Assembly (NCBI GenBank): GCA_963666115.2
Contig: CAXXET010000004.1
Location: 384,001 to 448,000, forward strand
DNA length: 64,000 nt
DNA from: Dehalococcoidia bacterium
GTDB taxonomy: Bacteria; Chloroflexota; Dehalococcoidia; UBA6926
Reading direction: 5' to 3'
Shown here: one piece after another, positions 19,697 through 51,617 of the stretch
Numbering within the stretch: the first letter of the stretch is position 1
Layout of the letters: the number at the start of each line of letters is the position of its first letter
The notes under the pieces: model-generated
Told to the model about the DNA's origin: nothing
The model's database searches: none
Seen by the model: only the letters and a program-made list of their open reading frames with translations
Program-made: the position numbers and the translations under genes

Positions 19697-19782
19697 AAGC
19701 TAAGGACAGCGGTCATGGGTTTGGGGTACGCTTCTGACATTGTTGCTTACACTACTCTTGGCACAGTTTAGGAGGAGCGAAC

Positions 19783-20394
19783 GTGCGCCGGCGCAAAACG
19801 ACCTTAGGGCGAGGAGCATTCGGCCACTACGTGCCGCAAGACCAGCATCATCGCCAGACTCTCGGCCGGATTCTTCACAGAGGGGCGCCGCTTACGGAGG
19901 ACGCAGTGTTCCTGGCCCTAGCACTCATTCTCAAAGAGCGGAACGGCAGTCGCGTATTTCAAAAGGTTCGCGCAAGCAAGAGCCTCCCCGATGGCAGTTC
20001 CTTCTATTTCTCACCTGATATCGACCTGCTGGAAGTGCGGCCAAGCGGAACGGTTGTCGGCTACGAATTGAAGGGGTATCGCCGCTCCAAGACAATGCAA
20101 CCACCAACCTACTACGAGGGACTGGATCAAGCGATGACCATCCTTATGAATCCTGCGAGTTCTCCGTATTCGAGGTTCTTCGCAGGCAGTGTCTTCGACC
20201 ACAGCTATCTCGTTCATCCCGAAGGCTCAGGCATCAGCAAAATCGACGATTTAGTCCGTCTCTGTACGCCAGTCGGGCTGATCGTCGTGGACCACACAGG
20301 AACCAAAGAAATCGTCAAGCCGAAGATGAATCCCTTTCTGGACGAAGGGCTGAAGAAACTGTTTCTAGAGAACCTCGACTCGCTGAGCACCTAA
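19783..20394 (+). CDS. Hypothetical protein with a PD-(D/E)XK-like nuclease motif
   Basis: RBS AGGAGG; SPDIDLLEV...GYELKG...GLDQA; visibly lower GC than its neighbours. Confidence 0.65.
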   Translation: MRRRKTTLGRGAFGHYVPQDQHHRQTLGRILHRGAPLTEDAVFLALALILKERNGSRVFQKVRASKSLPDGSSFYFSPDIDLLEVRPSGTVVGYELKGYRRSKTMQPPTYYEGLDQAMTILMNPASSPYSRFFAGSVFDHSYLVHPEGSGISKIDDLVRLCTPVGLIVVDHTGTKEIVKPKMNPFLDEGLKKLFLENLDSLST

Positions 20395-20480
20395 GAGAAC
20401 AACTGGAAAGTCAACCCAGTTCAGTAGACTGCGCGCAAACCGCGCACCGCTCGCAGTCGTCGCGAGAAAGTCGTAGCGGG

Positions 20481-20879
20481 TTAGCGGGGGCGGTTGCGGC
20501 GGTTGCGGATACGGTCCCAGAGGGAGGGGCCTGGGGGGCGTTCATAGAGGGTCTGGCCGCGCCATCGCTTTTCATAGCCGCCGGGGAGGTTGGCCGGCGA
20601 GCCGTTCCTGAAGTAGCTGAGGTAGGCCGCGCCGAGCAGGATGAGGCCGCCGAGGGCGCACGCGGCGCCAATCGAGCCTGAGACGCCCCATAGGAGCGCG
20701 CCGACGATGAGAAGGACGAGGCCGAGAACGGCGGCGTACTTGACACCGCCCATGAAGGAACGGCGCTGGCCCTCCGCAGGGCGGCGTCGCGGGGCGCGGC
20801 GGGCACGGCGGGGCGGAGGCGGCAGGCTGCCCGCCTTCTCCACGATGTCCTCAATCTCACGCTCGAAACGATCACTCAT
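20481..20879 (-). CDS. Hypothetical two-TM membrane protein
   Basis: MSDRFEREIEDI start, two hydrophobic helices, YEKRWRG motif. Confidence 0.7.
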   Translation of the reverse strand: MSDRFEREIEDIVEKAGSLPPPPRRARRAPRRRPAEGQRRSFMGGVKYAAVLGLVLLIVGALLWGVSGSIGAACALGGLILLGAAYLSYFRNGSPANLPGGYEKRWRGQTLYERPPGPSLWDRIRNRRNRPR

Positions 20880-20899: not shown

Positions 20900-21493
20900 A
20901 TGACCGATTCACAGCACCTGCCGTCGCTTGCGCCGGACAGCGTCCGCGCCGCGCTTGGCTCCTACGAGCCTGAGCTCATCAATGATGAGTCGTTGATGCC
21001 GTCCGCCGTTTTGTTGCCGATCATCGAGGGGCCAGCGGGGCCGAGCATCCTGTTCACCGTGCGGACATCGCGGGTGGAGCACCACAAGGGGGAGGTTTCG
21101 TTCCCGGGCGGGGCGCGTGACCCGGAGGACGAGACTATCGAACGGACGGCCATCCGCGAGACACATGAGGAAGTCGGGATCGAGCCGGACAAGGTCGAGG
21201 TTCTCGGCAGGCTGAATGACCACACGACGCGGACGGGCTACCACATCACGCCGTTCGTGGGAATTGTACGGCCGGGGGCGGACTACGAGCATGACCGGTT
21301 TGAGGTGAACGAGGTCTTTGAGGTTCCGTTCGCGGATTTGTGGGGGACTTACCTGGAGGGGCGGCAGCCGTTCAGGTACGGGGAGCGAACCATCATGGCG
21401 TATGAGTTTCACCATGAGGGGTATCGCATCTGGGGGGCGACGGCGGGGATTTTGGCGGAGTTCTTCGATGTTTTGCGGGCGGGGTTCGCATGA
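20900..21493 (+). CDS. CoA pyrophosphatase (Nudix, NudL/Pcd1-like)
   Basis: SAVL, HKGEVSFPGG, AIRETHEEVG, IWGATA. Confidence 0.9.
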   Translation: MTDSQHLPSLAPDSVRAALGSYEPELINDESLMPSAVLLPIIEGPAGPSILFTVRTSRVEHHKGEVSFPGGARDPEDETIERTAIRETHEEVGIEPDKVEVLGRLNDHTTRTGYHITPFVGIVRPGADYEHDRFEVNEVFEVPFADLWGTYLEGRQPFRYGERTIMAYEFHHEGYRIWGATAGILAEFFDVLRAGFA

Positions 21494-21668
21494 TAGTTCC
21501 ATGATTCCTGGTTAGGGGTTTGCAGGCTTTTGTCTGCTGTATGGCGCATTGCAGGCGCATTGATAGCGGCTTGTGGAAACCCGTATACTCGTGACAAACA
21601 CATTACGCCAATGGCGCCCTTTCAGGGTTTGGACACGCGCGTGATGAACCAGGAGCCTGCAAGCGTCT

Positions 21669-24600
21669 ATGGAGAAACGACTTACTCAGTCCAGACACTT
21701 CGTCTTCGCCCTGGCGGCCGTGCTGATCGCATTCCTGGGCATCCAGGCCCTCGCCGCGGCGCCCACTCCCGCGCACGGCCAGAGCGGCATCGCTCTAAGC
21801 GTTAGCAACATCAGCGCAGCGTCCCCAACGACCGCAACACTAACGAGCACGGCGAGCAGTTGGTCATACAGCCGCACCGCGCCGGACACGACGGACTGCA
21901 CGGCGGTCACCGGAACCACCGCAAACCTCACCGGCCTTGCGCCGGCAACGTCCTATACATACGGCGCATGGTCGACCAGCGACTGCACGGGATCCAACAC
22001 GGCCACCAAATCCTTTGCGACCGCCCCAACCTCGCCGGGCGCGTTATCCGCGACGCCCTATCACCAGAGCATCGGCATCTCGTGGATCCACGGGTCCAGG
22101 GTTGAGAACAGTCCCAACGGCAGCGCGATCAAGTATTGGCAATACAAGAAAGGCGCCGTCGCCAATAATCAGACCACCTGGGACGCCGACTGGACCAATC
22201 TCTGCGAGACGGATTCCACTACCGACCTCAATCTCCCTGTGGTGGATCAATGCCCCAACAGGAACAGCGGTACCGTGGCCAGCCTCACGAACGGCACGTC
22301 TTACCAGGTTCGAGTGCGCGCCTGCAACAACAACACCGACAGCAACATCAACAGCGGCAACCCGGTGTGCGGCCTGCCATCGCAGAATTCGAACGCCGTC
22401 ACGCCGGTCCCTGTTCCCCTGAAGCCGGATGATCCAACAGCGGCTGCCGGAGACGGACAGGCCACGCTGGGCTGGGCCGCGATTGCCGACAACGGGAGTT
22501 CGGTCACTTCCCTGCACTACATCAAGAAGGCCGGGACGGGCCAATTTGAGACCACGTGGATGACTATCTGCGTGACGGCGCCGACAACTGATCCCAACTA
22601 CGATGCCAATTGCGCCACCTTGAGGAGTTATGCGGTGACCGGCCTGACCAACGGCACGGCCTACCGGTTCAAGGTTCGCGCGGCAAACTCACACGGCAAC
22701 AGCCCGCCATCAATCCCGACAAACGAGGTGACGCCGGCGACGACCCCACCGGCGCCGAGCGCGACGGCGGATGCCCGCAACGCGAGCGTCAATCTCTCCT
22801 GGACGCCCGGCGTCGACCCCAACGGCGGCGGCGGGGACGGGGGCGACCCGATCACCAAGTGGCAATATGAGCAAAAGACCGGCAGCACGTGGAGCGGCAC
22901 GTGGACCGACATCTGCGTGACGTCGAGCGACAGCACGTGCCCCGCCAAGACGAGCTACACCGTCAGCAGCCTCACGAACGGCACGGCCTACCAGTTCAAG
23001 GTGCGCGCCGTGAACACCCTCGGCAACGGCGCGGAATCAGCGGAGACAACCGCAGTTACGCCGGCCACGGTTCCCGCCACGCCGACGAACCTGGCGGGGG
23101 CGGGCTACGACAGGAGCGCCAGGCTGTCGTGGGCGATAACCGGCACAAACATCACCAAATTGCAATACATCAAGAAGGCGGGAGCGGCTGCTTTCGAGAC
23201 GATGTGGACGGACATCCCGGGCAGCGGGGCGAGCACGATACTGCATACCGTGACCGGCCTGACGAACGGCACGGCGTATGAGTTCAAGGTTCGCGCGGTG
23301 AACGGCGACGTCAAGGGCGACGCCTCGGCCTCGTCGGGCGCCGTGACGCCTGCGGGAGCGCCATTCGCGCCGACCGCGGCGGCGAAGGCCGGCGTCATGA
23401 GCGCCATGCTGTCCTGGGGCGCCGTCAACGATAACGGCAGCGCGATCATAAAGTGGCAGTACATCAAGAAGGCGGGAACGGGCGCTTTCGAGGACACGTG
23501 GATCGACATCTGTGTAACGACGCCGACAACTGATCCCAACTACGATGCCAACTGCGCCGCCAGGACGAGTTATACCGTCACCGGCCTGACGAACGGCACG
23601 GCGTACCGGTTCAAGGTTCGCGCCGTGAATACTGCCCTCGACAACAACGGTGTCGGCGCGGAATCAGGGGCGACGACCGCCGTGACGCCGAATTCGAAGC
23701 CCGCGACGCCAACGAACCTGGCAGGGACAGGCGACGACAAGAGCGCCGCCCTGTCCTGGAGCATGACCGGCACGAACATCACCACGTGGCAGTACGTCAA
23801 GAAGACGGGAACGGGCGATTTCGAGACCACGTGGGCGGACATTCCGGGCAGCGGGGCGGACACGCGCTCATATACCGTGACCGGCCTCACGAATGAGACG
23901 ACATATGAGTTCAAGATTCGCGCGGTGAACGGGGAGATCGAAGGCGATGCCTCGGCTTCGTCCGGCCCCGTGACGCCCCGCGTTCCTTTTACCAGCAATG
24001 ATTCATGGAACCCAACGGCGCGGCGCGTGAATGCCGGAGGAGCGGCGCTCTTCATCGACCTCAACGACGGGTTCGACTCAGCGGGATTGGCGATGACGTG
24101 CCGGGCAACATCGGCGCGCCCGGCGGTGGCCACCGTGACCGTGCATGGGACGATGCTGCGAATCAGGCCGGTGGGGTCGGGAACCACGATGATCGAGGTG
24201 ACGTGCCAAGTGACGGTCGTCGGGAAGACGTACAGCGTGACGCATCCCACTCCGATGAGCGTGCGCGTAAACGAGGCGTACGTGCCGCCAACGCCAACGG
24301 CGGCGCCAATGCCGACGGCGACGCCGAGACCCACGGCCACGCCAACACCCAGGCCGACGGCCACGCCTCCGCCGCCGGTGCCGACGAACACGCCTACTCC
24401 AACGCCCGAGCCGACGGCGACACCCGAGCCGACAGCAACGCCGACGCCCACGAACACGCCCCTTCCGGCAACGCCAACCGCGACGGCTGAGCCGGACGGG
24501 GGCATCGGTGGTGGAGACATCCTCATTATCCTGATCGGCCTTCTGGCGCTCCTGGCAGCCGGGGCCTATCTGCTTTGGGTACGGCAAGGAGAGCGCGGCC

Positions 24601-24737
24601 CGTCCGGCAGTCCGCCGAGCGGCCCGCCGGCTACGGGACCGGGTCTTGACGTCAACGACAACCCAACATCATCAGGCATGACGGACGGGGACGACATGGA
24701 TGACGGTGACGGCGGGGAGGATGAACAGCGGGGATAG
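21669..24737 (+). CDS. Large surface protein with tandem fibronectin type III domains, Pro/Thr linker, TM anchor and acidic tail
   Basis: Signal peptide; repeated LSW...YTVTGLTNGTAYxFKVRAVN units; PTATP repeats; ILIILIGLLALLAAGAYLLW helix. Confidence 0.9.
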   Translation: MEKRLTQSRHFVFALAAVLIAFLGIQALAAAPTPAHGQSGIALSVSNISAASPTTATLTSTASSWSYSRTAPDTTDCTAVTGTTANLTGLAPATSYTYGAWSTSDCTGSNTATKSFATAPTSPGALSATPYHQSIGISWIHGSRVENSPNGSAIKYWQYKKGAVANNQTTWDADWTNLCETDSTTDLNLPVVDQCPNRNSGTVASLTNGTSYQVRVRACNNNTDSNINSGNPVCGLPSQNSNAVTPVPVPLKPDDPTAAAGDGQATLGWAAIADNGSSVTSLHYIKKAGTGQFETTWMTICVTAPTTDPNYDANCATLRSYAVTGLTNGTAYRFKVRAANSHGNSPPSIPTNEVTPATTPPAPSATADARNASVNLSWTPGVDPNGGGGDGGDPITKWQYEQKTGSTWSGTWTDICVTSSDSTCPAKTSYTVSSLTNGTAYQFKVRAVNTLGNGAESAETTAVTPATVPATPTNLAGAGYDRSARLSWAITGTNITKLQYIKKAGAAAFETMWTDIPGSGASTILHTVTGLTNGTAYEFKVRAVNGDVKGDASASSGAVTPAGAPFAPTAAAKAGVMSAMLSWGAVNDNGSAIIKWQYIKKAGTGAFEDTWIDICVTTPTTDPNYDANCAARTSYTVTGLTNGTAYRFKVRAVNTALDNNGVGAESGATTAVTPNSKPATPTNLAGTGDDKSAALSWSMTGTNITTWQYVKKTGTGDFETTWADIPGSGADTRSYTVTGLTNETTYEFKIRAVNGEIEGDASASSGPVTPRVPFTSNDSWNPTARRVNAGGAALFIDLNDGFDSAGLAMTCRATSARPAVATVTVHGTMLRIRPVGSGTTMIEVTCQVTVVGKTYSVTHPTPMSVRVNEAYVPPTPTAAPMPTATPRPTATPTPRPTATPPPPVPTNTPTPTPEPTATPEPTATPTPTNTPLPATPTATAEPDGGIGGGDILIILIGLLALLAAGAYLLWVRQGERGPSGSPPSGPPATGPGLDVNDNPTSSGMTDGDDMDDGDGGEDEQRG

Positions 24738-24746
24738 TCAAACTTC

Positions 24747-24774
24747 TTGACAGCCATGCATAAAGGCTTATAAT
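24747..24774 (+). promoter_or_regulatory. Sigma70-type promoter of the Hsp20 gene
   Basis: TTGACA-16 nt-TATAAT, followed by RBS AAGGAGG. Confidence 0.7.
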
Positions 24775-24810
24775 AGTGTTATCAAGTTACTAACAAGGAG
24801 GTTAGGAACA

Positions 24811-25197
24811 ATGACGATGACACGTTGGAATCCCTGGTTGGCGCCCGCGTGGCGGCGGAACAGCGGCAATCTCCGCATCGACGTGGAGGACAAGCCGGAT
24901 CACTACAGCCTGACGGCGTCTCTGCCCGGTTTCGAGGCGGACGACGTGGACATCTCGATCACGGGCCGCGTGGTGACGGTGTCGGCGGAGTCCAAGTCGG
25001 AGTCGGAGGACACGGCGGAGGGCGCGTACGTGCTGCGGGAGCGGTACAGCGGCTCGCTGATCCGCCGGCTCATCCTACCCGGGTCGGTGGACGCGGCGAA
25101 CGCCACGTCCGAGTTCACGAACGGGGTGCTGAGGATCAGGCTGCCGAAGGCGTCGGGTTCGGAGACGCACAAGGTGGCTGTTGGGGCCGGGAGCTAG
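24811..25197 (+). CDS. Small heat-shock protein (Hsp20/alpha-crystallin)
   Basis: LPGFEADDVDI, RERYSG, FTNGVLRIRLPK. Confidence 0.92.
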   Translation: MTMTRWNPWLAPAWRRNSGNLRIDVEDKPDHYSLTASLPGFEADDVDISITGRVVTVSAESKSESEDTAEGAYVLRERYSGSLIRRLILPGSVDAANATSEFTNGVLRIRLPKASGSETHKVAVGAGS

Positions 25198-25251: not shown

Positions 25252-25680
25252 CTATTTTTGGGTAACGGACGATGGCTGGGCGGTTACCTCCAGCCGGATT
25301 CCGATTGCCGAGAGGGCGGCGTCCATCTGATCAAGTCTCGACTTGTGGCGAATGTCCAGGACCCTGTCCACCTGCGGCAGATGCCAGCCGAGGCGCCTTG
25401 CCAGTTCGGCTTTGCCGACGCCCGTGTCTCTCATTCCCTTGTACAACATCACCTTGACAGACGTCAGGGTCGGGACGACGGCATAATAGTCACCCCGGGA
25501 AGGGGCCGGGATGTCCTTTCGGTCGTGAATGCGCGCGGCAATCGCCTCATCGATCGCGTCCACCACGCGCCTCAAGGACTCATCCCGGTTTTCGCCGAAG
25601 GTTGTAACCTCCGGGAGATCGGGACAGGTCACAAAGAGGGTGTCATCGTCATCCTCAAGCACAATTGGGTATGCCAGCAT
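25252..25680 (-). CDS. hicB: HicB-family antitoxin
   Basis: YPIVLEDDD.TLFVTCPDLPEVTTFG...IPAPS plus C-terminal HTH (KAELARRLGW). Confidence 0.85.
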   Translation of the reverse strand: MLAYPIVLEDDDDTLFVTCPDLPEVTTFGENRDESLRRVVDAIDEAIAARIHDRKDIPAPSRGDYYAVVPTLTSVKVMLYKGMRDTGVGKAELARRLGWHLPQVDRVLDIRHKSRLDQMDAALSAIGIRLEVTAQPSSVTQK

Positions 25681-25868
25681 TAGTCCAACCCCAGATCCTT
25701 CTTTATCTTCTCAACAAGCTTCTTGCCGAGTTCCTTTCGACCGCCGTGCATTGGAAGCTGGCTGGTTCTCTCACCGCGGCGAATGGTGAGATGCCCGCTT
25801 CCGCCCTTGTGCGACTCAAAGGTGCAACCCTGCCTCCTCAGCCATCGGCGGAGTTCATTGGCGTTCAT
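25680..25868 (-). CDS. hicA: HicA-family mRNA interferase toxin
   Basis: 62 aa basic protein with G.GH motif, LPMHG, IKKDLGL; stop overlaps the hicB start. Confidence 0.88.
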   Translation of the reverse strand: MNANELRRWLRRQGCTFESHKGGSGHLTIRRGERTSQLPMHGGRKELGKKLVEKIKKDLGLD

Positions 25869-43087: not shown

Positions 43088-43782
43088 TGGGCCTCGTCAT
43101 CAAGATGTGCGGCAACCGCACGGCGACGGACTTGATCAATGCCGCCGACGCGGGGGCGGATTTGCTTGGGATTATCTTTGCGGACGCGTGGCGGCGCGTA
43201 TCCGTCGATCATGCCAGGGAGATGGTGGCGACGCTGCGCGGCGAGGCGGACAACGTTCCGACGGTGGTCGGCGTGTTTGTGGATCAGCCCGTCGAGGAGG
43301 TGAATGAGACGGCTGAGCAGGTTGGGCTGGACATGGTCCAACTGCACGGCACGGAGCCTCCGGCGTACTGGGAGCAAGTGGAGAGGCCGTTGATCATCGC
43401 GCGGCGCATTTCGTCCACGTTGACGCCGGAACAGGTTGAGGACGAGCTGGGCGTGGTAAAGGAATTCACGCTGCAGACGGGTTCGCTCAGCCTAATCGAG
43501 CCGCACGTGGAGGGAGAGCCGGGCGGGGCCGGGGTCAGCCTGGATTTTGCGCTGGCGGAGCGGCTGGCGCGGCGGCAGTCGTTCATTTTGGCGGGGGGCC
43601 TGGGGCCGGGGAACGTCGGGGAGGCGATTCACGCCGTGCGACCATGGGGCGTGGACGTTTCAAGCGGCGTTGAGACGGATCGCGTGAAGGACCCGTCCAA
43701 GGTGGGGCGCTTTGTGTATGAGGCGCGGCGGGCGGCGGCGGATGCCATCGGCGGGCGCACGGGCGGCGGAGCAGCGCGATGA
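43087..43782 (+). CDS. trpF: Phosphoribosylanthranilate isomerase
   Basis: [29 protein letters not shown]. Confidence 0.93.
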
Positions 43783-44990
43783 CCATCGTCAAGACGGGGG
43801 CGGACGCGGAGGCGCCGGGGCGCTTCGGGCAGTTCGGCGGGCGGTACGTGCCGGAGACGCTGATGGCGGCGGTCACGGAGCTCGAGGAGTCGTACGCGGC
43901 GGCGCGGGAGGACACTGAGTTTTTGGCGCGGCTGGATCATCTCTCACGCACGTACGCGGGGCGGCCAACGCCGCTGACGCTGGCGGAACGGCTGACGGAA
44001 CAGAGCGGCGGGGCGCGCATCTATCTCAAGCGGGAGGACTTGGCGCACACGGGGGCGCACAAGATCAACAACGCGCTCGGCCAGGTGCTGCTTGCCCAGC
44101 GCATGGGCAAGACGCGGATCATCGCGGAGACGGGCGCGGGGCAGCACGGCGTGGCGGCGGCGACGGTGTGCGCGCTGCTGGGGCTGGAATGCGTCGTCTA
44201 CATGGGCGAAGAGGACATCCACCGGCAGGCGCCAAACGTGTTCCGCATGAGGCTGCTTGGAGCGGACGTCGTGTCCGTGACGTCCGGTTCGCGGACGCTC
44301 AAGGACGCCGTGAACGAGGCGATGCGCGACTGGGTGACGAACGTGGCGAACACGTACTACGTCATCGGCAGCGTCGTGGGGCCGCACCCCTACCCTGTCA
44401 TCGTGCGCGATTTCCAGTCCGTCATCGGACGGGAGGCGCGCGAGCAGATGCTGGAGGCGGAGGGTCGGCTGCCGTCGCATCTCGTGGCGTGCGTGGGGGG
44501 CGGGAGCAACGCGATGGGGCTGTTCCATGCGTTTTACGGCGACCAGAACGTCGCGATGGTCGGCGTGGAGGCGGCGGGGCACGGCATCGATACGGGCGAG
44601 CACAGCGCGAGCTTAGGGGCGGGCAAGCCGGGCGTGCTGCACGGGTCGTTCTCGCAAGTTCTGCAGGACGAGTGGGGGCAGGTGACGGAGACGCACAGCA
44701 TCTCCGCAGGGCTGGACTACCCGGGCGTGGGGCCGGAGTTGTCGTACTACCAGGAGACGGGTCGGGCGCGGTTCACGAGCGTGACGGACACGGAGGCGCT
44801 GGAAGGTTTTAAGCTCTTGGCGCGGACGGAGGGGATCATCCCGGCGCTGGAGTCGTCACACGCGATATTTGAGGCGGCGCGGCTGGCGTCGACGCTGCCG
44901 TCGGAGGACATTATCCTGATCAACCTGAGCGGCCGCGGGGACAAGGACCTGGCGACCGTGACAGACGCTTTGGGCATCGACCTGGGCTGA
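43779..44990 (+). CDS. trpB: Tryptophan synthase beta chain
   Basis: [51 protein letters not shown]. Confidence 0.97.
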
Positions 44991-45023
44991 CCGGCGAGCG
45001 GCGGGCATCGTTCATCGGCTCCC

Positions 45024-45141
45024 AAAAAGACGCTACCCCCTGACATTCGCTCGGCCTCGAATGAGAGGGGGCAGCGCAGCGCGGGGAAAGCAGTGAGGTA
45101 CAGTTCACATAGTGACTGCCGTCCCGCGCGCGAACACACCA
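45024..45141 (-). ncRNA. Candidate small structured RNA or leader, convergent with trpB
   Basis: Extended -10 TGgTAGACT (45156-45148), two hairpins and a U5 tract on the minus strand. Confidence 0.35.
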
Positions 45142-45184
45142 ACGGGTAGTCTACCACAGTTTGGGTAGATAGGGAACGGGGGCA

Positions 45185-45239
45185 CCCTTCGACTGCGCTC
45201 AGCGTGAGCGGATTTGGGGTCAGCGTGAGCGGATTTGGG
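45185..45239 (+). repeat. Family C repeat (CCCTTCGAC..GCTCAG) with duplicated 3' part
   Basis: Related copies at 46018, 46422, 48476, 49278 and 52748. Confidence 0.8.
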
Positions 45240-46088
45240 CGGGGGGGGGGTTATGTTCTTCGGGGGTGGCGGGGCGGGGGGCGGGCACGCCTGCGCGCTA
45301 TGCTTTCGCGGCTCATCGGGGGCTGTCTCCTTTCGGTTTGGGGCTTTCTGCCTGGTCTTGGAGGGAACGCATCGCTGCCGGTTCCTGGCTGTTCGTCGGT
45401 TCGGGCCGGTGGCGCGCTTGGGTCGCAGCCAGGGGACGCCTGACGCTGGGCGGGTCTGCTGCGCCTGCAGGCTCCTCGCCCCATGTTGGGTGGTCACGGG
45501 CCTTTCGATGGCGTTGGCCGTGTCCGCCTCCCGCCAAGCGATCACGTCGCCGGACGGGAAGTTCGTCCCTCGCGCGCAACACGCGGTTAACGTGAGCGGC
45601 GGCGGTCCATCCTCGCACAGCCGCGATGCCACTTCGCGGATGTACGGCATGCCCCTAACGCAGACGCCGATGGCATCTGACCCGCGTCGGACGTTGCGCA
45701 GGGCGGCCCGCCAGGGTCATGGCATGTTTTGGGCCGCTACGCGCTCCCGTCAGCCCACCGTCACTGATCGCCCGTGGCCACGAGCAAACCCGTCGTGGTT
45801 TCCTGGCCGGGTATGTTGAGGAACCTTGGCAGCGATGCGTTCTCTTTTCCCGTGCAGGGGGCGCCCTCCTGTGCGCTCCCGGGGATGGTGGCGGCTCAGT
45901 TGCTAGCGTGTCGGGCCGCCGTGGGATGGCTCGATGTGGGTGACTTTAGGACAGGTGTTTGGGGTGCGTCAAATGGTGGTGTCACATGGGGGTGTCACAT
46001 GGGGGCCTGCTCGTTCACCCTGCGACAGGCTCAGCACCCGCCCAATCAGGTATACTCTGCCTAAAGACAGCAAGAGAGGACTCATTCA

Positions 46089-46286
46089 ATGGCCGCCCAA
46101 CAGACAGCGCCTTCCGAAGAACGACTGACCCGCCTTGAGGCCAAGATGGGCGAGCATTCCCGCGAGATTGGCGGCATGCGGCAGGACATTCGCGATCTGC
46201 GGTCTTCGATCGACACGCTGCGGAACATCATCATCGTGGCCGCCATCGGCGCCGTTGTTACTCTCATCATTGGGGCTTTCATATAG
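46089..46286 (+). CDS. Small coiled-coil protein with C-terminal TM helix
   Basis: RBS GAGGA and TATACT upstream; EERLTRLE heptads then IIIVAAIGAVVTLIIGAFI. Confidence 0.7.
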   Translation: MAAQQTAPSEERLTRLEAKMGEHSREIGGMRQDIRDLRSSIDTLRNIIIVAAIGAVVTLIIGAFI

Positions 46287-46465
46287 GGTGCGACCACACG
46301 GGCGAGCGGAGAAGAGGGTGGCTGCGCCGATTGTGAACATGTATAGGGCGGGGTAGGAGAGTTGGGGCTTACTGGGCGTTGCTCATGGCCTGCGTCAAGG
46401 CGGGGTGTCACATGGGGGGCACCCTCGATGGGCTCAGGGTGAGCGGGGGGCTGCAGGCGCGGCAG

Positions 46466-46696
46466 TTAGGATGGTCCGGTTTCCGCCTCGAACGTAAAGA
46501 ACGCGCTGGTAGGAACATTCATGGCTTCGGCAATGGCGCGGATGTTTTTAAGCGAGGGATTACGGATGCCTCGCTCGATACCTGACAGATAGGTTACGTG
46601 GACGCCGGCTCGGTGAGCCACCTCTTCCTGTGTGGCTCCCTGCAGCGTCCTCAGATGGCGTATGTGTCGGCCAAACGCGGCCAAGTAAGCATCCAC
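46466..46696 (-). CDS. XRE-family HTH regulator, restriction-modification controller (C) protein-like
   Basis: FGRHIRHLR..TQEEVAHRAGVHVTYLSGIERGIRNPSLKNI; GTG start at 46696; C-boxes upstream. Confidence 0.85.
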   Translation of the reverse strand: MDAYLAAFGRHIRHLRTLQGATQEEVAHRAGVHVTYLSGIERGIRNPSLKNIRAIAEAMNVPTSAFFTFEAETGPS

Positions 46697-46720
46697 TTGA
46701 CGGGACGCTATCAAGACATA

Positions 46721-46746
46721 GATTATTAGTCCATAGACTATAAGTC
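46721..46746 (-). promoter_or_regulatory. Tandem C-box operators
   Basis: Minus strand reads GACTtatAGTC-tatg-GACTaatAATC, matching the GACT-N3-AGTC tandem layout of C.PvuII-type operators. Confidence 0.75.
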
Positions 46747-46853
46747 TATATGGCGTCATGGGCGGGGCGACCAACACATCCCCCAGGGCTGCCAGCTAAT
46801 CCCAAGGAGACGGTGAGGTCAGCGCCACAGCCGAGGTGGCAGGGGGCATTTGA

Positions 46854-47336
46854 ATGAAGAGGCTACAGGTCTTGTTCCTGGTTGTCTTGGCGAGCATGAT
46901 CCCGTTCGCCGTGCTGGGGTGTGAGGAAGGCGGCGAAGAACCAACAGCATCAACCTTCGAGATGGAGCAACCTACGGTGACACCCGAACCTATTGCGACA
47001 ACTATAGCCACGGCGACGCCTACACCGGTAACGGACAATTCGGCGATGGCGGTACCGTCCATCCAGGAGTATGTGGAGGTTAGAGACGCTGCTATAAGTC
47101 AGGATGGCGACACCTACAGCTTGGTTCTGGTCGTTGACAGGGCAACTAGCACGGAGCGAGCCAAGGAGTTGGGCGATAACTTCGTTAGGATGGTGAAGAG
47201 CTTTGGCCCCGACGATTCACCCGGGCAGGAGATTGGCAGCGGTACCTACGACTACCTCATCGGAATCTACTACCCTGACGGAGAGCAGGTGGCACTCGGC
47301 GCCAAGTCCAGAATTTCGACGCGGATAACCTGGTAG
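46854..47336 (+). CDS. Putative lipoprotein
   Basis: Signal peptide with lipobox VLGC, Pro/Thr linker, small globular domain. Confidence 0.75.
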   Translation: MKRLQVLFLVVLASMIPFAVLGCEEGGEEPTASTFEMEQPTVTPEPIATTIATATPTPVTDNSAMAVPSIQEYVEVRDAAISQDGDTYSLVLVVDRATSTERAKELGDNFVRMVKSFGPDDSPGQEIGSGTYDYLIGIYYPDGEQVALGAKSRISTRITW

Positions 47337-47376
47337 CGGCAGTCCTACTCCCCTCGTGTGCAATATGACTTCGACA

Positions 47377-48378
47377 TCATCTGCGGCGTGTGCTGTCCAA
47401 GGCGAGGCCATCTCGGATCAGCGGTTGAACGCTCATCATCTGTGGATCTAACCCCTCAAGGTCAAGTAATGCCTCGAAGCGCTTCCTTAGCTTGTCATCA
47501 ACACGCTGAATTTCCCTTATCTCGGCTAACTCAACGCCCAACCTTCCGAAGACTCCTTCTGCAGTTCCGTTGAGGCGGTATCTCTTGCCGTTTGCCTCAA
47601 TCCACACGGCATTGTCCTTTGCACATAGAAGGGCCGATCCCAGAGTAAGGGGCCATTTGTCGCCATAATCGCTTGCATTGATCCTCCTTTTGGCTGCACT
47701 CCACAGAAACCAAGTTCGTTCCCAAGTCACTAGACACCTGACATACAAGAGGGAGGGGATGGCAAGGCATACTGGCAGCAGCAGCGATTGGAGTATGGAT
47801 ATTGCGATCGAAGAGTCCTCAATGACGCGAAGTGTCGCCAGGGCGAGAGAAAGCAGCACATACGACGCAAGGAGGGTAGCGATGGTCGTGTAGCCGAAAC
47901 CATCAGACCTGTTCGACTGAAGGGAGGCAAACACAAGTGATAGGAACGACAACACTGGGAAGATGAGCAACTCCAGCAGCAAAGGCAATGTAGATGCGCT
48001 CAAGACTGCTGTCGCGAATGCCGCCAGCAGAACCCCCTTGGTCGGGAATTTTAGTGCGCTCTCACCTTCAAGATACTTGTCGTAGTTCATGAGAAAACCG
48101 ATGCCAGAGAACAAAAACCAGGATAAGGCGCCAACTACTGGCAGGATCTCCCAAAACCCAGCAATTCTGCCCAGCAACACGGCCATGATCGTTGCTAGAA
48201 CCACCGTAAGGAAGAGCCCCAGCAATGGCAAAAGAAGGCCCCAATGCAACAGCGTTCTGGCTATCCCCCACAAGGACGTGCGAAATGAGGCGCTGAAGCC
48301 AATTGTCAGCGTGGCTACGGACAGAGCCCACAACATCGTGGCCTGATGTCGCGCATTAAGGTCGTAGAATTCAATCAC
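47377..48378 (-). CDS. Multi-pass membrane protein with C-terminal YebY/DUF2511-like domain
   Basis: About 7 hydrophobic segments then YGDKWPLT...LLC...RYRLNGTA; lower GC. Confidence 0.65.
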   Translation of the reverse strand: MIEFYDLNARHQATMLWALSVATLTIGFSASFRTSLWGIARTLLHWGLLLPLLGLFLTVVLATIMAVLLGRIAGFWEILPVVGALSWFLFSGIGFLMNYDKYLEGESALKFPTKGVLLAAFATAVLSASTLPLLLELLIFPVLSFLSLVFASLQSNRSDGFGYTTIATLLASYVLLSLALATLRVIEDSSIAISILQSLLLPVCLAIPSLLYVRCLVTWERTWFLWSAAKRRINASDYGDKWPLTLGSALLCAKDNAVWIEANGKRYRLNGTAEGVFGRLGVELAEIREIQRVDDKLRKRFEALLDLEGLDPQMMSVQPLIRDGLALDSTRRR

Positions 48379-48575
48379 AGGATTAAGCCGTATGCATTAG
48401 GATGGCAGTGGCGCGCCTGACGGTGTCTATAGGCATGGTTTCGCTCTGATAGTACAGCACAGGGAAGGGTGTCCACCCTTCGACGAGCTCAGGAGGAGCG
48501 GCTGGGAAGGGCTCAGTTTAGCAAGGGAAATCTACGTAGCCACGACCATTAGCTCTGAAGGGGGAGCCACCCGTT

Positions 48576-48830
48576 CTACCGATAAGGGTACTTGTTGCTC
48601 TTTCTCCGGTTGGCCGAAGTCTGCATGGCTTGCAAATTCCTAGGGGAATTAGTTCCGCCCTTCGACTTGGGCTTGGAATGGTCGACCTCCCAACTCTTCG
48701 GTCCGTTCTTTCCGTAGGCAGGCTTATAGATCTCGTTGCCCAGTGGGTCTCTCCGAAAGAGACCTGGGTTCTTTCCTCGGATTGGTTGCGCCTTATCCCA
48801 AGCCGTGTTCCGTCGACGTTTGCTCGCCAT
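48576..48830 (-). CDS. Small HNH endonuclease
   Basis: WEVDHSKPKSKGGTNSPRNLQAMQTSANRRK; RBS AAGGAG. Confidence 0.85.
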   Translation of the reverse strand: MASKRRRNTAWDKAQPIRGKNPGLFRRDPLGNEIYKPAYGKNGPKSWEVDHSKPKSKGGTNSPRNLQAMQTSANRRKSNKYPYR

Positions 48831-49066
48831 ATCAGTTCAACTCCTTGCTAGAGTGCTCTAGCACCTACGATCCATCTGTTTTTGCTCCGGCACACACTTG
48901 GCGGTGCTGCCGGGACGCCCTGCACCTCTCCCGGCCCCTCCCTCTTAAGACGACTCTGGCCACACTTGGCCCCACCAGCCATACCGAACACCGACCAGTA
49001 TACTCAGCGGTTTCTGGCCGTCAATGCCTACGGGTAGAGACTTTACGGGGTGGTGCCGCGTCCGCT

Positions 49067-49301
49067 GGATTCCCGCTTTCGCGGGAAAAAGGGGGGCGGC
49101 GGCGCTAGGGGGTTTGGTTGGCGCTATGAGATTCAGATTCCCGCGTGCGCGGGAATGACGGAGGGGGGGGCCGCCGGCGCGGGGGATTCGGGGGTAGGTG
49201 TGCGGGATGTGACCCTGCGGGCCACGCGATGGATTCCGGCCTACGCCGGAATGACGGAGGGGTGAACCCCGCTCGTTCTTCGACGGGCTCAGGGTGAGCG
49301 G
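49067..49301 (+). repeat. Cluster of three family B repeats and one family C repeat
   Basis: 49067 GGATTCCCGCTTTCGCGGGAA; 49135 AGATTCCCGCGTGCGCGGGAATGAC; 49231 GGATTCCGGCCTACGCCGGAATGAC; 49278 CTTCGACGGGCTCAGGGTGAGCGG. Confidence 0.85.
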
Positions 49302-49316
49302 GGGGGAGAGGGGATT

Positions 49317-50291
49317 TTATGGGAGGGTTAGGAGGTGGGATTCCAGGGTTAGGCGGGCGTTGGCGTTTTGGCGGAGGGCCTGGATGGTGAAGAGGGTGTT
49401 CATGAGGGCGGATTGGGATTGGTGCAGGGTGGCATCGATTTGGCGGATGTTGTCCAGGGTTTGTGGGTCTGTTATGTCTTCGGGGGAGCCTGCCGCTACG
49501 ATTAGGGCGTCTCGCCAGATTGAGGCCCATGCTTCCAGGCGGGTTAGGAGGCGTTGGCGGTCTGCGTAGAAATCTTCGGCCATTTTGCCTGCTCGCTTTA
49601 GGCGGTCGGCGACGGGTTCGTTTCGGAGGGCGATGATTTCATCGAGGGCGGCGCGGCGGGCTTCCAGCGGGGCGGCATCGGCCAGGAGGCTGAGGGCGAA
49701 TTCGAGGCGGCCGCCGGAGAGTTTTGCCAAGCGGTTCGCGTCGTCATCGTCGGCGCCGTTCTGGCGCAATGCCTCCGCGACCTGGTCAAACGGGATCGGG
49801 CGGAGCGGAACGATCTGGCAGCGGGAGCGGATCGTGTCGAGCAGCGCCTCATCGTTGGCCGTGACGAGGATGAGGGTGACGTTCGGGTGCGGCTCTTCCA
49901 GGACCTTGAGGAGGGCGTTTGCGGCTTCGCGGGTGAGGGTGTCGGCATCGTCGATGATGATGACGCGGCCCTTCGCTTCATAGGGCTGGAGGTTGGCGGC
50001 GGCCTGGAGGTCTCTCGCGGCCTCGATGCCGATGGAGCCTGCGCTGGTGGGCGAGATAACCAGAACATCGGCGTGGTTGCCGCTTTCGATGCGCCGGCAG
50101 TGGCGGCAGTCAACGCACGGCCTCTCTTGCTCCGATTCACACAGCAGGGCTTTTGCGAACTCACGGGCGAGGGCCATGCCGCCGACGCCCTGGGGGCCGG
50201 TCAGCAGCCACGCGTGGGCTAGCCGTCCTTGTTTGACTGAGCGGTCAAGGAGGGCGATTGCGTCTTGGTCGGCGGGGACAGTCCAAGCCAT
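49317..50291 (-). CDS. holB: DNA polymerase III subunit delta'
   Basis: HAWLLTGPQGVG, C..PCVDCRHC zinc motif, AANALLKVLEEP, TIRSRC. Confidence 0.93.
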   Translation of the reverse strand: MAWTVPADQDAIALLDRSVKQGRLAHAWLLTGPQGVGGMALAREFAKALLCESEQERPCVDCRHCRRIESGNHADVLVISPTSAGSIGIEAARDLQAAANLQPYEAKGRVIIIDDADTLTREAANALLKVLEEPHPNVTLILVTANDEALLDTIRSRCQIVPLRPIPFDQVAEALRQNGADDDDANRLAKLSGGRLEFALSLLADAAPLEARRAALDEIIALRNEPVADRLKRAGKMAEDFYADRQRLLTRLEAWASIWRDALIVAAGSPEDITDPQTLDNIRQIDATLHQSQSALMNTLFTIQALRQNANARLTLESHLLTLP

Positions 50292-50297
50292 GGCGGG

Positions 50298-51617
50298 TTA
50301 GGCGTCGAGGCGGAGGAGGTCTTCTATGGTTTCGCGGCGGCGGATTGTGCGGGGTTCGCCGTTGGAGACGAGGACGACTTCGGGGCGGGGGTTGGCGTTG
50401 TAGGTGGATGACATTGCGATGCAGTATGCGCCGGAGACGGGGATGGCAAGGATATCGCCGGCGGCAGGGGTCGGCAGGGGGCAATCGCGGACGAGGATGT
50501 CGCCGGATTCGCAGTATTTGCCCGCGATGGTGACGGTGATTTCCTCGGCGTCCGCCATGCGGGAGGCCAGCACGGCCTCATATTGCGAGCCGTAGATGGC
50601 GGGGCGGATGTTGTCGCCCATGCCGCCGTCGACGGAGACGTAGGTGCGGATGTCCGGGAGGAGCTTGGTCGCGCCGACGGTGTAGAGGGCGACGCCTGCC
50701 GTGCCGACCATAGAGCGGCCCGGCTCGATGGATATGGCGGGGAGTTCAAGGCCGTGAACATCACAGCCCTGGATGACGGCCTTTGAGATAGTGGCGATGT
50801 ATGAGTCCGGGGCGGGGGCTTCGTCCGTGGCGAGGTAGTTGACGGCAAAGCCGCCGCCCGGGCTGAACATTCGCATCGTGAAGCCGTGCTTCTCCTTCAT
50901 CTGCGCGGCAAACTCCATCGTAATCTGAATGGCCTCTTCATAGGGCTCAAGCTCAAATATGGGGGAGCCGAGGTGGAAATGGAGGCCGGCAACGTCGAGG
51001 CGCGGCGACTGCATGGCGCGCGCGATTGCCTCTTCCGCCTGGCCGGTCTGGATGGCGAGACCGAACTTGCTGTCCAGCACGCCGGTGGTGGTGTGGGCGT
51101 GGGTGTGCGGATCAACGCCGGGTGAGACGCGGAACGACACCTGCTGCGTTTTTTCCAGCCGCTCAAGGATGTACTCAAGCAGTGCGAGTTCATGGAGGTT
51201 GTCAACGACGATTGCGCCGATGCCGGACTCGACGGCCTGTTCAAGCTCCGCAGCGCTCTTGTTGTTTCCATGGAAGTGGACGTTGGCGGGGTCGATGCCC
51301 GCCGCCTGCGTGGTGATCAGTTCGCCGCCGCTTACAACGTCAAAGCCGACGCCCTCTTCGGCAAGCAGGCGGAAAAGGGCGACGTTGGAGAACGCCTTGG
51401 AGGCGTAGATGATGGAGCTTTCGCCGGGGTAGTGGGCGTCCAGGGCGGCGCGGAAGCGGCGGGCTGAGTCACGCAGTTCGGCCTCATCAAAGACGTAGAG
51501 GGGGGTGCCGCGTTCTTGGGCGAGCTGGACGGTGTCCAAGCCGGCGATTTCAAGGTTGCCGTTGGGGCGTGCCTTTGCGGAGGCTGGGAAAACGGGAAGG
51601 GCGTCAATTCCTCTCAT
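50298..51617 (-). CDS. lysA: Diaminopimelate decarboxylase
   Basis: TPLYV, YASKA, SGGEL, SKFG, HFHLGS, GGG, EPGRS, CESGD, GAY. Confidence 0.95.
   Translation of the reverse strand: MRGIDALPVFPASAKARPNGNLEIAGLDTVQLAQERGTPLYVFDEAELRDSARRFRAALDAHYPGESSIIYASKAFSNVALFRLLAEEGVGFDVVSGGELITTQAAGIDPANVHFHGNNKSAAELEQAVESGIGAIVVDNLHELALLEYILERLEKTQQVSFRVSPGVDPHTHAHTTTGVLDSKFGLAIQTGQAEEAIARAMQSPRLDVAGLHFHLGSPIFELEPYEEAIQITMEFAAQMKEKHGFTMRMFSPGGGFAVNYLATDEAPAPDSYIATISKAVIQGCDVHGLELPAISIEPGRSMVGTAGVALYTVGATKLLPDIRTYVSVDGGMGDNIRPAIYGSQYEAVLASRMADAEEITVTIAGKYCESGDILVRDCPLPTPAAGDILAIPVSGAYCIAMSSTYNANPRPEVVLVSNGEPRTIRRRETIEDLLRLDA

Follow-up and report, generated by a model that had tools for sequence, protein, structure and literature searches.

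A 4.1-kb insertion (45190-49305) lies in the convergent trpB-holB spacer of an uncultured Dehalococcoidia bacterium and was found only in this genome among those compared. The trpB-holB interval is accessory and variable, and we consider it likely that the site is a hot spot resembling minimal mobile elements, filled stepwise and colonised by dispersed repeats. Positions refer to the window, the whole 64,000-nucleotide stretch of DNA that was analysed. An earlier sequence-only reading had taken the interval for an integron-like array of genes captured and exchanged as units between co-oriented hairpin repeats. This interpretation was partly supported: the interval is indeed accessory and variable, and its proposed mechanism did not hold up. 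The repeats, the genes and their low G+C content were located as it described. The interval and its flanks contain the following features (z, folding relative to shuffles).

43779..44990, plus strand: trpB, the conserved left flank (PALP domain, 6.2e-47)
45010..45105, minus strand: conserved ~95-nt block by the trpB stop, near-identical in 15 congeners with varying surroundings
45178..45232, plus strand: left boundary, variant family-A repeat in two tandem part-copies (..GCGCTCAGCGTGAGCGGATTTGGG / GTCAGCGTGAGCGGATTTGGG)
45317..46005, minus strand: element E, ~650-nt non-coding, one of five copies in the genome
46013..46040, plus strand: degenerate family-A copy, 5' half only (z +0.99)
46089..46286, plus strand: 65-aa coiled-coil/TM protein, weakly XhlA-like (PF10779, 1.5e-4, below the family cut-off)
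46386..46418, plus strand: 33-nt fragment of the element E promoter end (82%), with an A repeat directly after it
46419..46450, plus strand: family-A repeat (0 mismatches; 22/26 to the family consensus)
46466..46777, minus strand: orphan controller (C-protein)-like XRE regulator (HTH_3, 2.1e-16; PADLOC Control_protein, 2e-14)
46854..47336, plus strand: 160-aa putative lipoprotein (lipobox-like VLGC read from the sequence)
47377..48378, minus strand: 333-aa multi-pass membrane protein with a DUF2511-like C-terminal domain (PF10709, 1.6e-4)
48474..48505, plus strand: diverged family-A repeat (2 mismatches; 22/26 to the consensus; z +1.25)
48576..48830, minus strand: 84-aa HNH endonuclease (PF13395, 1.5e-6; PF01844, 9.7e-6)
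49064..49262, plus strand: three family-B hairpin repeats (stems of 7-8 bp; z -2.05 to -3.42)
49275..49306, plus strand: right boundary, family-A repeat (0 mismatches), 11 nt from the holB stop codon
49317..50291, minus strand: holB, the conserved right flank (DNA_pol3_delta2, 6.8e-55), aligned in congeners

The trpB-holB site in related genomes

The trpB gene aligned at 75-88% to all tested congeners. When the site was read base by base in 15 congeners (a set that leaves out G001, G009, G011, G012, G015 and G016), it was empty in 13 of them, with 176-212 bp from the trpB stop to the holB stop. The spacer of G005 was 559 bp long and contained a 118-aa ORF that was read as retropepsin-like, and that of G021 was 2106 bp long and contained the same putative retropepsin-like ORF plus further ORFs read as broken beta-propeller genes. 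Four states of the site were found among 16 genomes, namely the empty form (13 genomes), the G005 form, the G021 form and the 4.1-kb mosaic described here, which bears out the expectation that the interval varies across relatives. No A, B or D repeat was present at any of the 13 empty sites; the G005 cargo was likewise without a repeat, and G021 had one B copy near holB. No donor allele for the insertion was found, nor an intermediate allele or an order of events.

The congener alignment ended at approximately 45164-45195 and restarted at approximately 49304-49319, positions that coincide with the two outermost A-type repeats of the interval. Both outer breakpoints lie exactly at A repeats, as repeat-based capture predicts, and this counts against a hot-spot reading. 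Breakpoints at the repeats had been expected throughout; this was correct for the two outer ones but not for the one junction inside the interval at which homology of the XRE regulator ended, at approximately 46749, without a repeat. The rest of the 64-kb window was collinear with G007, G003 and G008, and seven of its eight variable sites were without such repeats in this genome. In the relatives, some variable segments of the syntenic region contain repeat clusters.

The conserved block at 45010..45105 has, on the minus strand, a putative hairpin followed by a T-run (read from the sequence) and gave no Rfam match at E<=1. It may be a terminator or the 3' end of a lysA-holB transcript, or a small RNA.

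Cargo genes

The G+C content of the cargo segments was 0.547-0.586, compared to 0.637 for the window; for the cargo regarded as foreign and rare the range was 0.547-0.565. The 65-aa XhlA-like protein matched phrog_1193 at 1.3e-5, and weak matches alone (E about 1e-3) were found for it in three of 60 relatives. For the XRE regulator, the true start is likely the GTG at 46696, giving 76 aa; a GACT-ATA-AGTC palindrome read from the sequence lies upstream at 46736-46746 and is a candidate C-box. The regulator is an orphan here because no methyltransferase or restriction gene is adjacent to it. Homologues 78-81% identical were present at other loci in G013, G012 and G020; the homology spans 46481-46749 alone and ends where a repeat is absent, there being none between the XRE and lipoprotein genes. 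At the XRE loci of two of these three congeners, repeats lie approximately 15-35 nt from the XRE stop codon, as they do here. In G013, the 76-aa homologue is divergent to a neighbouring 467-aa ORF, which from its motifs may be a methyltransferase-HNH fusion.

The putative lipoprotein had no match in family searches and one real homologue among 60 relatives (G052, 47% over residues 33-160), and its matches within the genus were limited to the signal-peptide end. The 333-aa membrane protein scored 22.4 bits against PF10709 (cut-off 21) and matched phrog_2950 at 1e-8. One full-length homologue was found in 300 other genomes of the class (G252, 37%), flanked by ORFs that were read as type I restriction genes, and none in a metagenome scan. 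The HNH gene has its own promoter-like site (49024-48997, TTGACG-16-TATACT, promoter scan) and no orthologue in 60 relatives. Apart from the XRE regulator, none of the cargo genes (four of the five) had an orthologue within the genus. The suggestion that the same cargo would occur elsewhere was correct for the XRE regulator in three congeners, but no internal unit was found at another locus. The cargo is rare and was not seen to circulate as repeat-bounded units.

Element E

The approximately 700 bp that had been described as non-coding or decayed DNA is non-coding but not decayed, and corresponds to the multi-copy element E (45317-46005). The copies at C4:277779-278451 and C7:131357-131995 were 95.4% and 98.4% identical, respectively, and no conserved ORF was found across 20 copies. 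A promoter-like site on the minus strand (-35 TTGACG at 45972-45967, -10 TAAAGT at 45948-45943) is conserved, and has the form TTGACG-18-TAAAGT here. On the minus strand, a pair of 5' hairpins is accompanied by a long-range helix of 16-18 bp (45845-45828 pairing with 45379-45362), which closes a domain of approximately 450 nt; a scripted search found the long-range complement in 18 of 20 copies. There was no Rfam match to the element, and matches to its covariance model were confined to the genus.

Among the 81 predicted pairs, 38 change on both sides. Paired cells amounted to 90.3%, compared to 82.1 +/- 0.6 in shuffles (0/500 reached the observed value) and 31-50% with partners slid, with the structure derived from the same alignment of 15 related sequences as was tested. 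The helices are conserved and backed by compensatory changes, as in a structured RNA. It is probable that element E gives rise to a structured RNA, transcribed along the minus strand under a promoter of its own.

The junction formed by the 33-nt E end and the following A repeat recurs at the C7 copy (46391-46449 compared to C7:131384-131325, 83%), and such junctions, in duplicate, lie on either side of the XhlA unit.

Repeat families in the interval and in the genome

The family-A core, TCGAnnnGCTCAGnGTGAGCGG, had four matches in the window at <=3 mismatches (46425, 48480, 49280 and 52752) compared to 0.20 expected, and 0/100 shuffles reached four. Family B (GATTCCCGC..GCGGGAATGACGG) had six compared to 0.00 expected, including those at 49068, 49136 and 49232, and the window matches of both families were all on the plus strand. 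At the locus the repeats are 26-35 nt long. Those reported near 45185 and 46018 are present, but as a variant in two tandem part-copies and as a 5' half-copy (46017-46034 agrees at 17/18 bases), respectively. Their description as hairpins was valid for the three B copies, which folded clearly better than shuffles (z -2.05 to -3.42), but not for the A copies, which folded weakly (z -0.73 to -1.26) or, in two cases, no better than shuffles (z +0.99 and +1.25).

In the 2.07-Mb genome there were 321 copies (A 69, B 154, D 90 and F 8), of which 251 were intergenic by a crude gene call; by the same call, at least one copy lay in 177 of 1919 intergenic spaces, and all three gene arrangements were represented among these. 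The repeats form composite B-A-D clusters, and 4.2-kb windows elsewhere were equally or more dense, with up to 11 copies. Of 201 Dehalococcoidia genomes sampled, 77 carried the 22-nt core of family A, representing 56 of 142 genera (reversed control, 0). Short, partly palindromic, extragenic, present in many copies and arranged in mosaic clusters, the repeats are REP/BIME-like. They are ordinary dispersed intergenic elements of the lineage that settle in permissive spacers, often directly after stop codons.

Neighbouring pairs were co-oriented in 262 of 304 cases overall and in 75 of 77 at <=100 nt. The co-orientation noted at the locus is real but holds throughout the genome: the strand of 266 of 293 copies (91%) agreed with the sign of the local GC skew, and polarity switches where the skew switches. 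The strand of the repeats is set by replication direction and not by the trpB-holB locus.

At a second locus (C3:49000-61000), which is a biased sample because it was chosen for repeat density, two segments of approximately 2 kb unmatched in the five relatives searched were bracketed by repeats. In G003 and G008, the short interval corresponding to the first segment carries B and A copies. Both the trpB-holB and the C3 loci are bracketed, and therefore repeats and strain-specific DNA co-occur more than once. The repeats bracketing the C3 segments also count against a hot-spot reading.

Recombination and transposition genes

In agreement with the earlier reading, no integrase and no Pfam transposase domain were found in the ORFs of the interval, and no tRNA was found in the whole 64-kb window. 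The tyrosine recombinase gene closest to the interval encodes XerD (9304-10254; 344.1 bits, cut-off 329.6). Two proteins in the genome matched PF00589, and XerD and the other, XerC-like, are its only tyrosine recombinases. They scored 127 and 101.9 bits against TIGR02249 (cut-off 265), and an integron integrase is absent from the genome. The Y1/RAYT transposase (PF01797) was found in 0 of 22 genomes of the genus, while the positive control matched six of 14 known genomes.

Origin of the insertion

The content of the interval is probably a mosaic built in several steps. Its parts would be a low-G+C islet from outside the genus comprising the C-protein-like regulator, the lipoprotein, the membrane protein and the HNH gene; the small XhlA-like gene; a recent copy of the genus-specific element E; and copies of the REP-like families A and B. 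Homologous replacement through the flanks would be the likeliest route of arrival, and the repeats may have aided rearrangement through short homology. The repeats do not act as integrase-dependent sites for cassette recombination.

An integron- or NIME-like array, in which units between co-oriented repeats are mobile cassettes moved by site-specific recombination at the repeats, would account for an interval absent from most congeners, outer breakpoints that coincide with A repeats, the shared orientation, and the occurrence of the XRE gene elsewhere in three congeners, in two of which repeats lie close to its stop. This reading is already largely refuted and we regard it as very improbable: the genome lacks an integron integrase, the repeats are shorter than attC sites and occur genome-wide with an orientation that tracks GC skew everywhere, and the genes lie on both strands with promoter-like sites of their own. 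Moreover, homology breaks at the repeat-free XRE/lipoprotein junction, empty sites are free of repeats, other cargo at the site is without flanking repeats, and four of the five cargo genes have no genus orthologue.

It is unlikely, though less so, that A/B/D repeats and E ends are preferred recombination substrates at which foreign DNA enters by a replication-strand-linked process with a non-RAYT enzyme. The three repeat-bracketed genome-specific segments (trpB-holB and two in C3), the B and A cluster of G003 and G008 at the first C3 site, and the duplicated E-end plus A junctions around the XhlA unit are consistent with such entry, and the strictness of the strand polarity suggests a mechanism that acts on single strands and is coupled to replication, of the kind tied to IS200/IS605-type biology. 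In contrast, all 13 empty trpB-holB sites and seven of the eight variable sites in the window lack repeats, the C3 locus was picked by repeat density, and repeats and foreign DNA may merely share a preference for permissive spacers. Still less probable is an origin from a single mobile element (a prophage, satellite or defence island) that integrated here and then decayed, with loss of the integrase and of most genes. The phage or defence flavour of the cargo (XhlA-like, HNH, XRE repressor-like and controller-protein matches) points in this direction, as does the sole full-length homologue of the membrane protein lying between putative type I restriction genes. Against it, there are no integrase, tRNA, structural or replication genes and no att-like direct repeats beyond the generic A copies; G+C and homology patterns vary by segment, and element E is chromosomal and multi-copy, its P2 hairpin motif having 0 matches in viral contigs.

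Comparison with known systems

The interval resembles an integron array in that unrelated accessory genes stand in a row, separated by co-oriented repeats able to form hairpins. In integrons, each cassette is followed by an attC site, an imperfect palindrome about 55-141 nt long whose outer cores are conserved; most cassettes consist of a single ORF without a promoter, and they share one orientation. Unlike integrons, the locus has no IntI, its repeats fall short of attC length and are scattered over the genome, its genes lie on both strands with promoter-like sites (located by a promoter scan upstream of the HNH gene and within element E), and one junction is repeat-free. The repeats were rejected as attC sites on their length of 26-35 nt, the weak or absent folding of the A copies and the bare XRE-lipoprotein junction. 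Like the interval, the NIMEs are mosaics in intergenic DNA in which a short dispersed repeat, dRS3, recurs; their units are short non-coding segments, whereas those here are 0.4-2 kb and gene-bearing. The dRS3 repeats serve as phage integration targets.

The XRE regulator is similar to the controller (C) proteins of R-M systems in being an HTH_3 protein of approximately 76 aa that matches PADLOC Control_protein models, and in having upstream a GACT-N3-AGTC palindrome, read from the sequence and presumably C-box-like. The G013 homologue, divergent to the putative methyltransferase-HNH fusion, is a further likeness. Unlike in C-protein systems, no methyltransferase or restriction gene adjoins the regulator in this genome.

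The repeats are similar to REP/BIME elements and to the REPIN-RAYT systems of Enterobacteria and Pseudomonas (PMC3337134, PMC3116915), being short, partly palindromic, extragenic, high-copy and arranged in multi-family mosaics. They differ from REPIN-RAYT in the lack of a RAYT/Y1 transposase in 22 genus genomes and from REPINs in that neighbours are co-oriented (262/304) rather than inverted doublets. Unlike REP/REPIN elements, 91% of the copies follow the GC-skew sign, and the 22-nt family-A core is common to 56 of the 142 sampled genera of the class.

A close parallel is with the minimal mobile elements of Neisseria as defined in section 6 of PMC3082526. The definition in that section includes no dispersed repeats and no non-coding element inside the cargo, the genomes compared here are species-level representatives rather than strains of one naturally transformable species, and homologous recombination through the flanks, by which such elements are incorporated, is presumed at trpB-holB. 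As at those sites, variable content lies between conserved genes: trpB and holB enclose different whole-gene content in different genomes, and none in most, at a site without a dedicated mobility gene.

Layout of the trpB-holB interval

The host genome comprises 2.07 Mb in 9 contigs, and the window comes from its contig C4. The stretch of approximately 4.1 kb separating trpB from holB (about 45190-49305) is a mosaic specific to this strain, set between two conserved genes at a site that varies. Generic REP-like repeats with replication-linked polarity are scattered along it, and it includes one copy of a new non-coding element specific to the genus, here called element E.

Features of the interval and its flanks (window coordinates)
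43779-44990, plus strand: trpB, left flank
45010-45105, read on the minus strand: conserved block (about 95 nt) adjoining the trpB stop codon, no Rfam match
45178-45232: A-type variant repeat, two tandem part-copies
45317-46005: non-coding stretch of 689 bp (element E)
near 46018: half-copy of the A repeat
between the A half-copy and the E-end fragment: XhlA-like gene, 65 aa
46386-46450: 33-nt fragment of the right end of element E, fused to an A repeat
right of the E-end/A junction, minus strand: XRE/controller-like gene
right of the XRE gene, plus strand: putative lipoprotein gene
right of the lipoprotein gene, minus strand: membrane-protein gene, 333 aa
48474-48505: A repeat, diverged
right of the diverged A repeat, minus strand: HNH gene, 84 aa
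49064-49262: three B hairpins
49275-49306: final A repeat
49317: holB stop codon

The repeats were found where the sequence-only reading had placed them and far above chance, with four matches to A in the window compared to 0.20 expected and six to B compared to 0.00. The lower G+C content that it had reported for several cargo genes was also borne out (cargo 0.547-0.586 compared to 0.637 for the window), as was the lack of tRNA genes at the locus, the whole window having none. Its description of the repeats as hairpins holds for the B copies, which are convincing, but folding of the A copies is weak or absent. The 700 bp that it took for apparently non-coding or decayed DNA is not decay but the repeated element E.

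The block of approximately 95 nt at 45010-45105 hardly changes among 15 congeners, in contrast to its variable flanking DNA. Its minus strand has the look of a long hairpin with TCTTTTT behind it. In genomes with an empty site the block comes immediately after holB, in the same orientation. An operon terminator or a small RNA may lie here. A search of Rfam at E<=1 with window positions 44000-50500 gave zero matches, which places both element E and this block outside known RNA families.

Variation of the site among relatives

In a DNA search of 40 relatives, trpF-trpB and holB-lysA were adjacent in congeners, and the congener alignments stopped at approximately 45164-45195 and restarted at approximately 49304-49319. 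When 15 congeners were read base by base (six others fell outside this reading), the two stop codons were 176-212 bp apart in 13, with A, B and D copies absent. The site in relative G005 measured 559 bp and held a 118-aa ORF read as retropepsin-like, without any repeat. In relative G021 it measured 2106 bp and held a single B copy, a retropepsin-like ORF and further ORFs that we read as beta-propeller genes in a broken state. With at least four states among these genomes, the trpB-holB site is a hot spot.

The outer breakpoints of the insertion fall at A repeats. Since the empty sites hold no A copies, these were not a pre-existing target and arrived with the insert or afterwards. The earlier expectation that the interval would vary among congeners with breakpoints at the repeats agrees with the outer edges, but not with the cargo of G005 and G021, which is not bounded by repeats, nor with the XRE gene, where homology breaks at a repeat-free junction.

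Contigs from four DNA sequencing runs were aligned to 43800-50400. Short pieces from two runs (X1 and X2) matched the islet, the low-G+C foreign part, with 0-1 differences, indicating a near-identical strain in both. No contig of the four runs spanned the interval. The islet is uncovered in X3 and X4, which carries no weight as evidence. One contig joined 45207 to 49286, with a shorter side of 21 letters and 12 other letters between. It was rejected as an excision product because the joint falls entirely within repeat sequence, and it was taken as a repeat from elsewhere.

ORFs of 117-118 aa, read as retropepsin-like aspartic proteases, occurred at differing variable sites: the trpB-holB site of G005 (fetched stretch L014) and of G021 (L013), L018:5363-5719 in relative G013, and C6:563321-563674 in the present genome, G000, where the ORF adjoins a copy of element E. 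This ORF looks like a small mobile gene.

Cargo genes

The product of the XRE gene matches restriction-modification controller-protein models, and homologues 78-81% identical were found at other loci in G013, G012 and G020. In G013 the homologue (76 aa) is divergent to a 467-aa ORF (L018:3430-5138), the translation of which was read as an N6/N4 DNA methyltransferase carrying an HNH domain at its C terminus, flanked by A and B repeats; this ORF may be a single-chain restriction-modification-like unit. The DNA shared with the XRE loci of other genomes is limited to 46481-46749, and therefore the partner gene was exchanged at a repeat-free junction. The XRE regulator is an orphan in G000. Just upstream of its probable start (GTG at 46696), the palindromes TAGTCCATAGACT and GACTATAAGTC occupy 46727-46746, and a GACT-ATA-AGTC palindrome was also read upstream of the gene. 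We take the palindromes at 46727-46746 to be candidate sites resembling C-box operators.

The membrane protein had one full-length homologue in 300 other genomes of the class (G252, 37% identity), located between ORFs read as type I restriction genes, and a metagenome scan for it gave 104 pattern matches and 0 confirmed. The lipoprotein had one real homologue in 60 relatives, and no orthologue of the XhlA-like or HNH genes was found among the same 60. No evidence was found of internal units circulating as repeat-bounded cassettes.

Repeat families and replication-strand polarity

By pattern count, G000 carries 69 copies of A, 154 of B, 90 of the third family D (GATTCTTCGCTGCGCTCAGAATGACA) and 8 of F, a total of 321 or 0.155/kb. 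Under a crude gene call of our own (approximately 91% coding), 251 copies were intergenic and 177 of 1919 intergenic spaces held at least one, with convergent, divergent and tandem spaces alike. The interval has 6 strict copies in 4.1 kb and other 4.2-kb windows of the genome reach 11, so its repeat density is high but not unique. The 22-nt core of A (CCCTTCGACAGGCTCAGGGTGA), allowing up to 2 mismatches, was present in 77 of the 201 class genomes sampled and in 56 of 142 genera, compared to 0 for the reversed control, with a per-genome maximum of 125 copies (G002). This conservation is unusually wide for a REP-like sequence. In the literature collection searched, no paper contained a 15-nt piece of the A core and none dealt with REP elements in Dehalococcoidia.

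Neighbouring repeats were co-oriented in 262 of 304 pairs, and in 96 of the 126 pairs more than 3 kb apart. Repeat orientation changed at GC-skew changes. With repeats masked, 266 of 293 copies matched the skew sign of the surrounding 20 kb, a test that left out 20 copies in weak-skew DNA, and all three main families obeyed the local sign. Moreover, in all five copies of element E the RNA strand is opposite to the G-rich strand. The co-orientation of the repeats at the interval is a by-product of genome-wide replication-strand polarity.

A genus-specific non-coding element

Element E has five copies in G000, three of them 95-98% identical to each other. BLAST found the family in 16 of 22 genomes of the genus, and a covariance model built on the 136 nt at the 5' end detected it in 6 of the 7 genus genomes sampled, at 2-10 copies each, compared to 0 of 143 genomes of other genera. 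In a search across 185,579 species the exact P2-hairpin motif occurred in 22 records, of which 18 are MAGs of Dehalococcoidia or Chloroflexota; it also occurred in 6 metagenome contigs, with 0 matches in viral contigs.

In an alignment of 30 copies read on the minus strand, the -35 (TTGAC/TTGCA) and -10 (TAnnnT) boxes are kept and the spacer is variable; the promoter scan of the window copy gave TTGACG-18-TAAAGT. A long-range helix was found in 18 of 20 copies, where 14-19 nt have their complement, allowing no more than 1 mismatch, 446-536 nt farther downstream, with matched changes on both sides. RNAalifold predicted 81 pairs in 15 full-length copies, 38 of them changed on both sides. Paired cells reached 90.3% compared to 82.1% in shuffled alignments (0 of 500 reached 90.3%) and 31-50% with partners slid, values that are supportive and not conclusive because this very alignment supplied the structure and its copies share ancestry. 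A coding role was rejected: no ORF was common to 20 copies, and the 181-aa minus-strand ORF of the window copy was not conserved across them. An IS-type element was also rejected, as comparison of the region upstream of relA in G000, where E is present, with that in G007, where it is absent, showed neither a clean empty site nor a duplicated target.

In G000, G012, G013 and G020 a copy directly precedes gatC in the same orientation, and in G000 and G008 a copy does so for relA (G000 C4:277779-278451 and C7:131357-131995; fetched stretches L046, L048 and L049; G008 C1:325454-326049). Two copies abut the 3' end of a gene read as tRNA-Gly. Within-genome identity is 95-98% and identity at the same site in different genomes is approximately 70-80%, a pattern pointing to gene conversion or replacement of copies. 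The XhlA unit is flanked by two junctions of an E end plus A, which suggests recombination between dispersed copies there.

Element E could be, in our estimate with a little under even confidence, a new genus-specific, multi-copy structured RNA of approximately 600 nt that has a function, as opposed to being just DNA that moves. It is the most promising by-product of this analysis, being multi-copy, about 650 nt long, and having a conserved promoter-like site, covarying helices and no Rfam family. If expressed, it would be added to the few large non-coding RNAs of bacteria that have no assigned function.

Repeats and foreign DNA at other sites

As an unbiased sample, the entire window was aligned to its syntenic counterparts in G007, G003 and G008. 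This revealed 8 variable sites of at least 300 bp, and in G000 trpB-holB alone among them carries A, B or D copies. Where repeats occur in the window, the insertion is mostly small and consists of the repeat only. At 25252-25868, ORFs read as a HicB/HicA-like toxin-antitoxin pair are present in G000 and G007, with repeat-free borders, and G003 and G008 have the site without the pair. An 828-bp insertion specific to G000 at 19660-20487 (203-aa ORF) and a 3.4-kb variable segment at 21483-24845 (1022-aa secreted-looking protein) are both without A, B or D repeats.

In the region C3:49000-61000, chosen for its high repeat density, two segments of approximately 2 kb bracketed by repeats were unmatched in the five relatives searched. 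The first, with ORFs read as a VapB/VapC-like pair (L058:2662-3359; G000 C3:51661-52358) and a 334-aa protein, is flanked by one A and one B copy, and the short interval fetched from the same site in G003 and G008 has a B+A cluster. Repeat clusters were also found inside some variable segments of relatives. The coincidence of repeats and foreign DNA at some sites could reflect shared tolerance of spacers or true repeat-assisted recombination. A weaker role of the repeats, as substrates of recombination, appears improbable. Slightly more doubtful still is the idea that the REP-like clusters of these Dehalococcoidia would admit genes through an undescribed capture process, coupled to the replication strand and working without RAYT or an integrase, with the trpB-holB mosaic as one product. 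Strain-specific genes in this lineage occupy a few hot spots between conserved genes.

Comparison with known systems

An integron-like gene-trading system at the interval is unlikely; had it held, it would have been a new gene-trading route for small-genome, uncultured marine Dehalococcoidia. The only two Phage_integrase-family genes of G000, XerD and XerC-like, both score far under the integron-integrase cut-off, and the proposed analogy with integrons or NIME arrays broke down at every defining feature tested. The A, B and D repeats resemble REP/BIME sequences in form but fall outside the definition of REPIN-RAYT systems because no Y1/RAYT transposase was found in G000 or in any of the 22 genus genomes searched. 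Of the two halves of the minimal-mobile-element definition, the trpB-holB site fits the first (PMC3082526).
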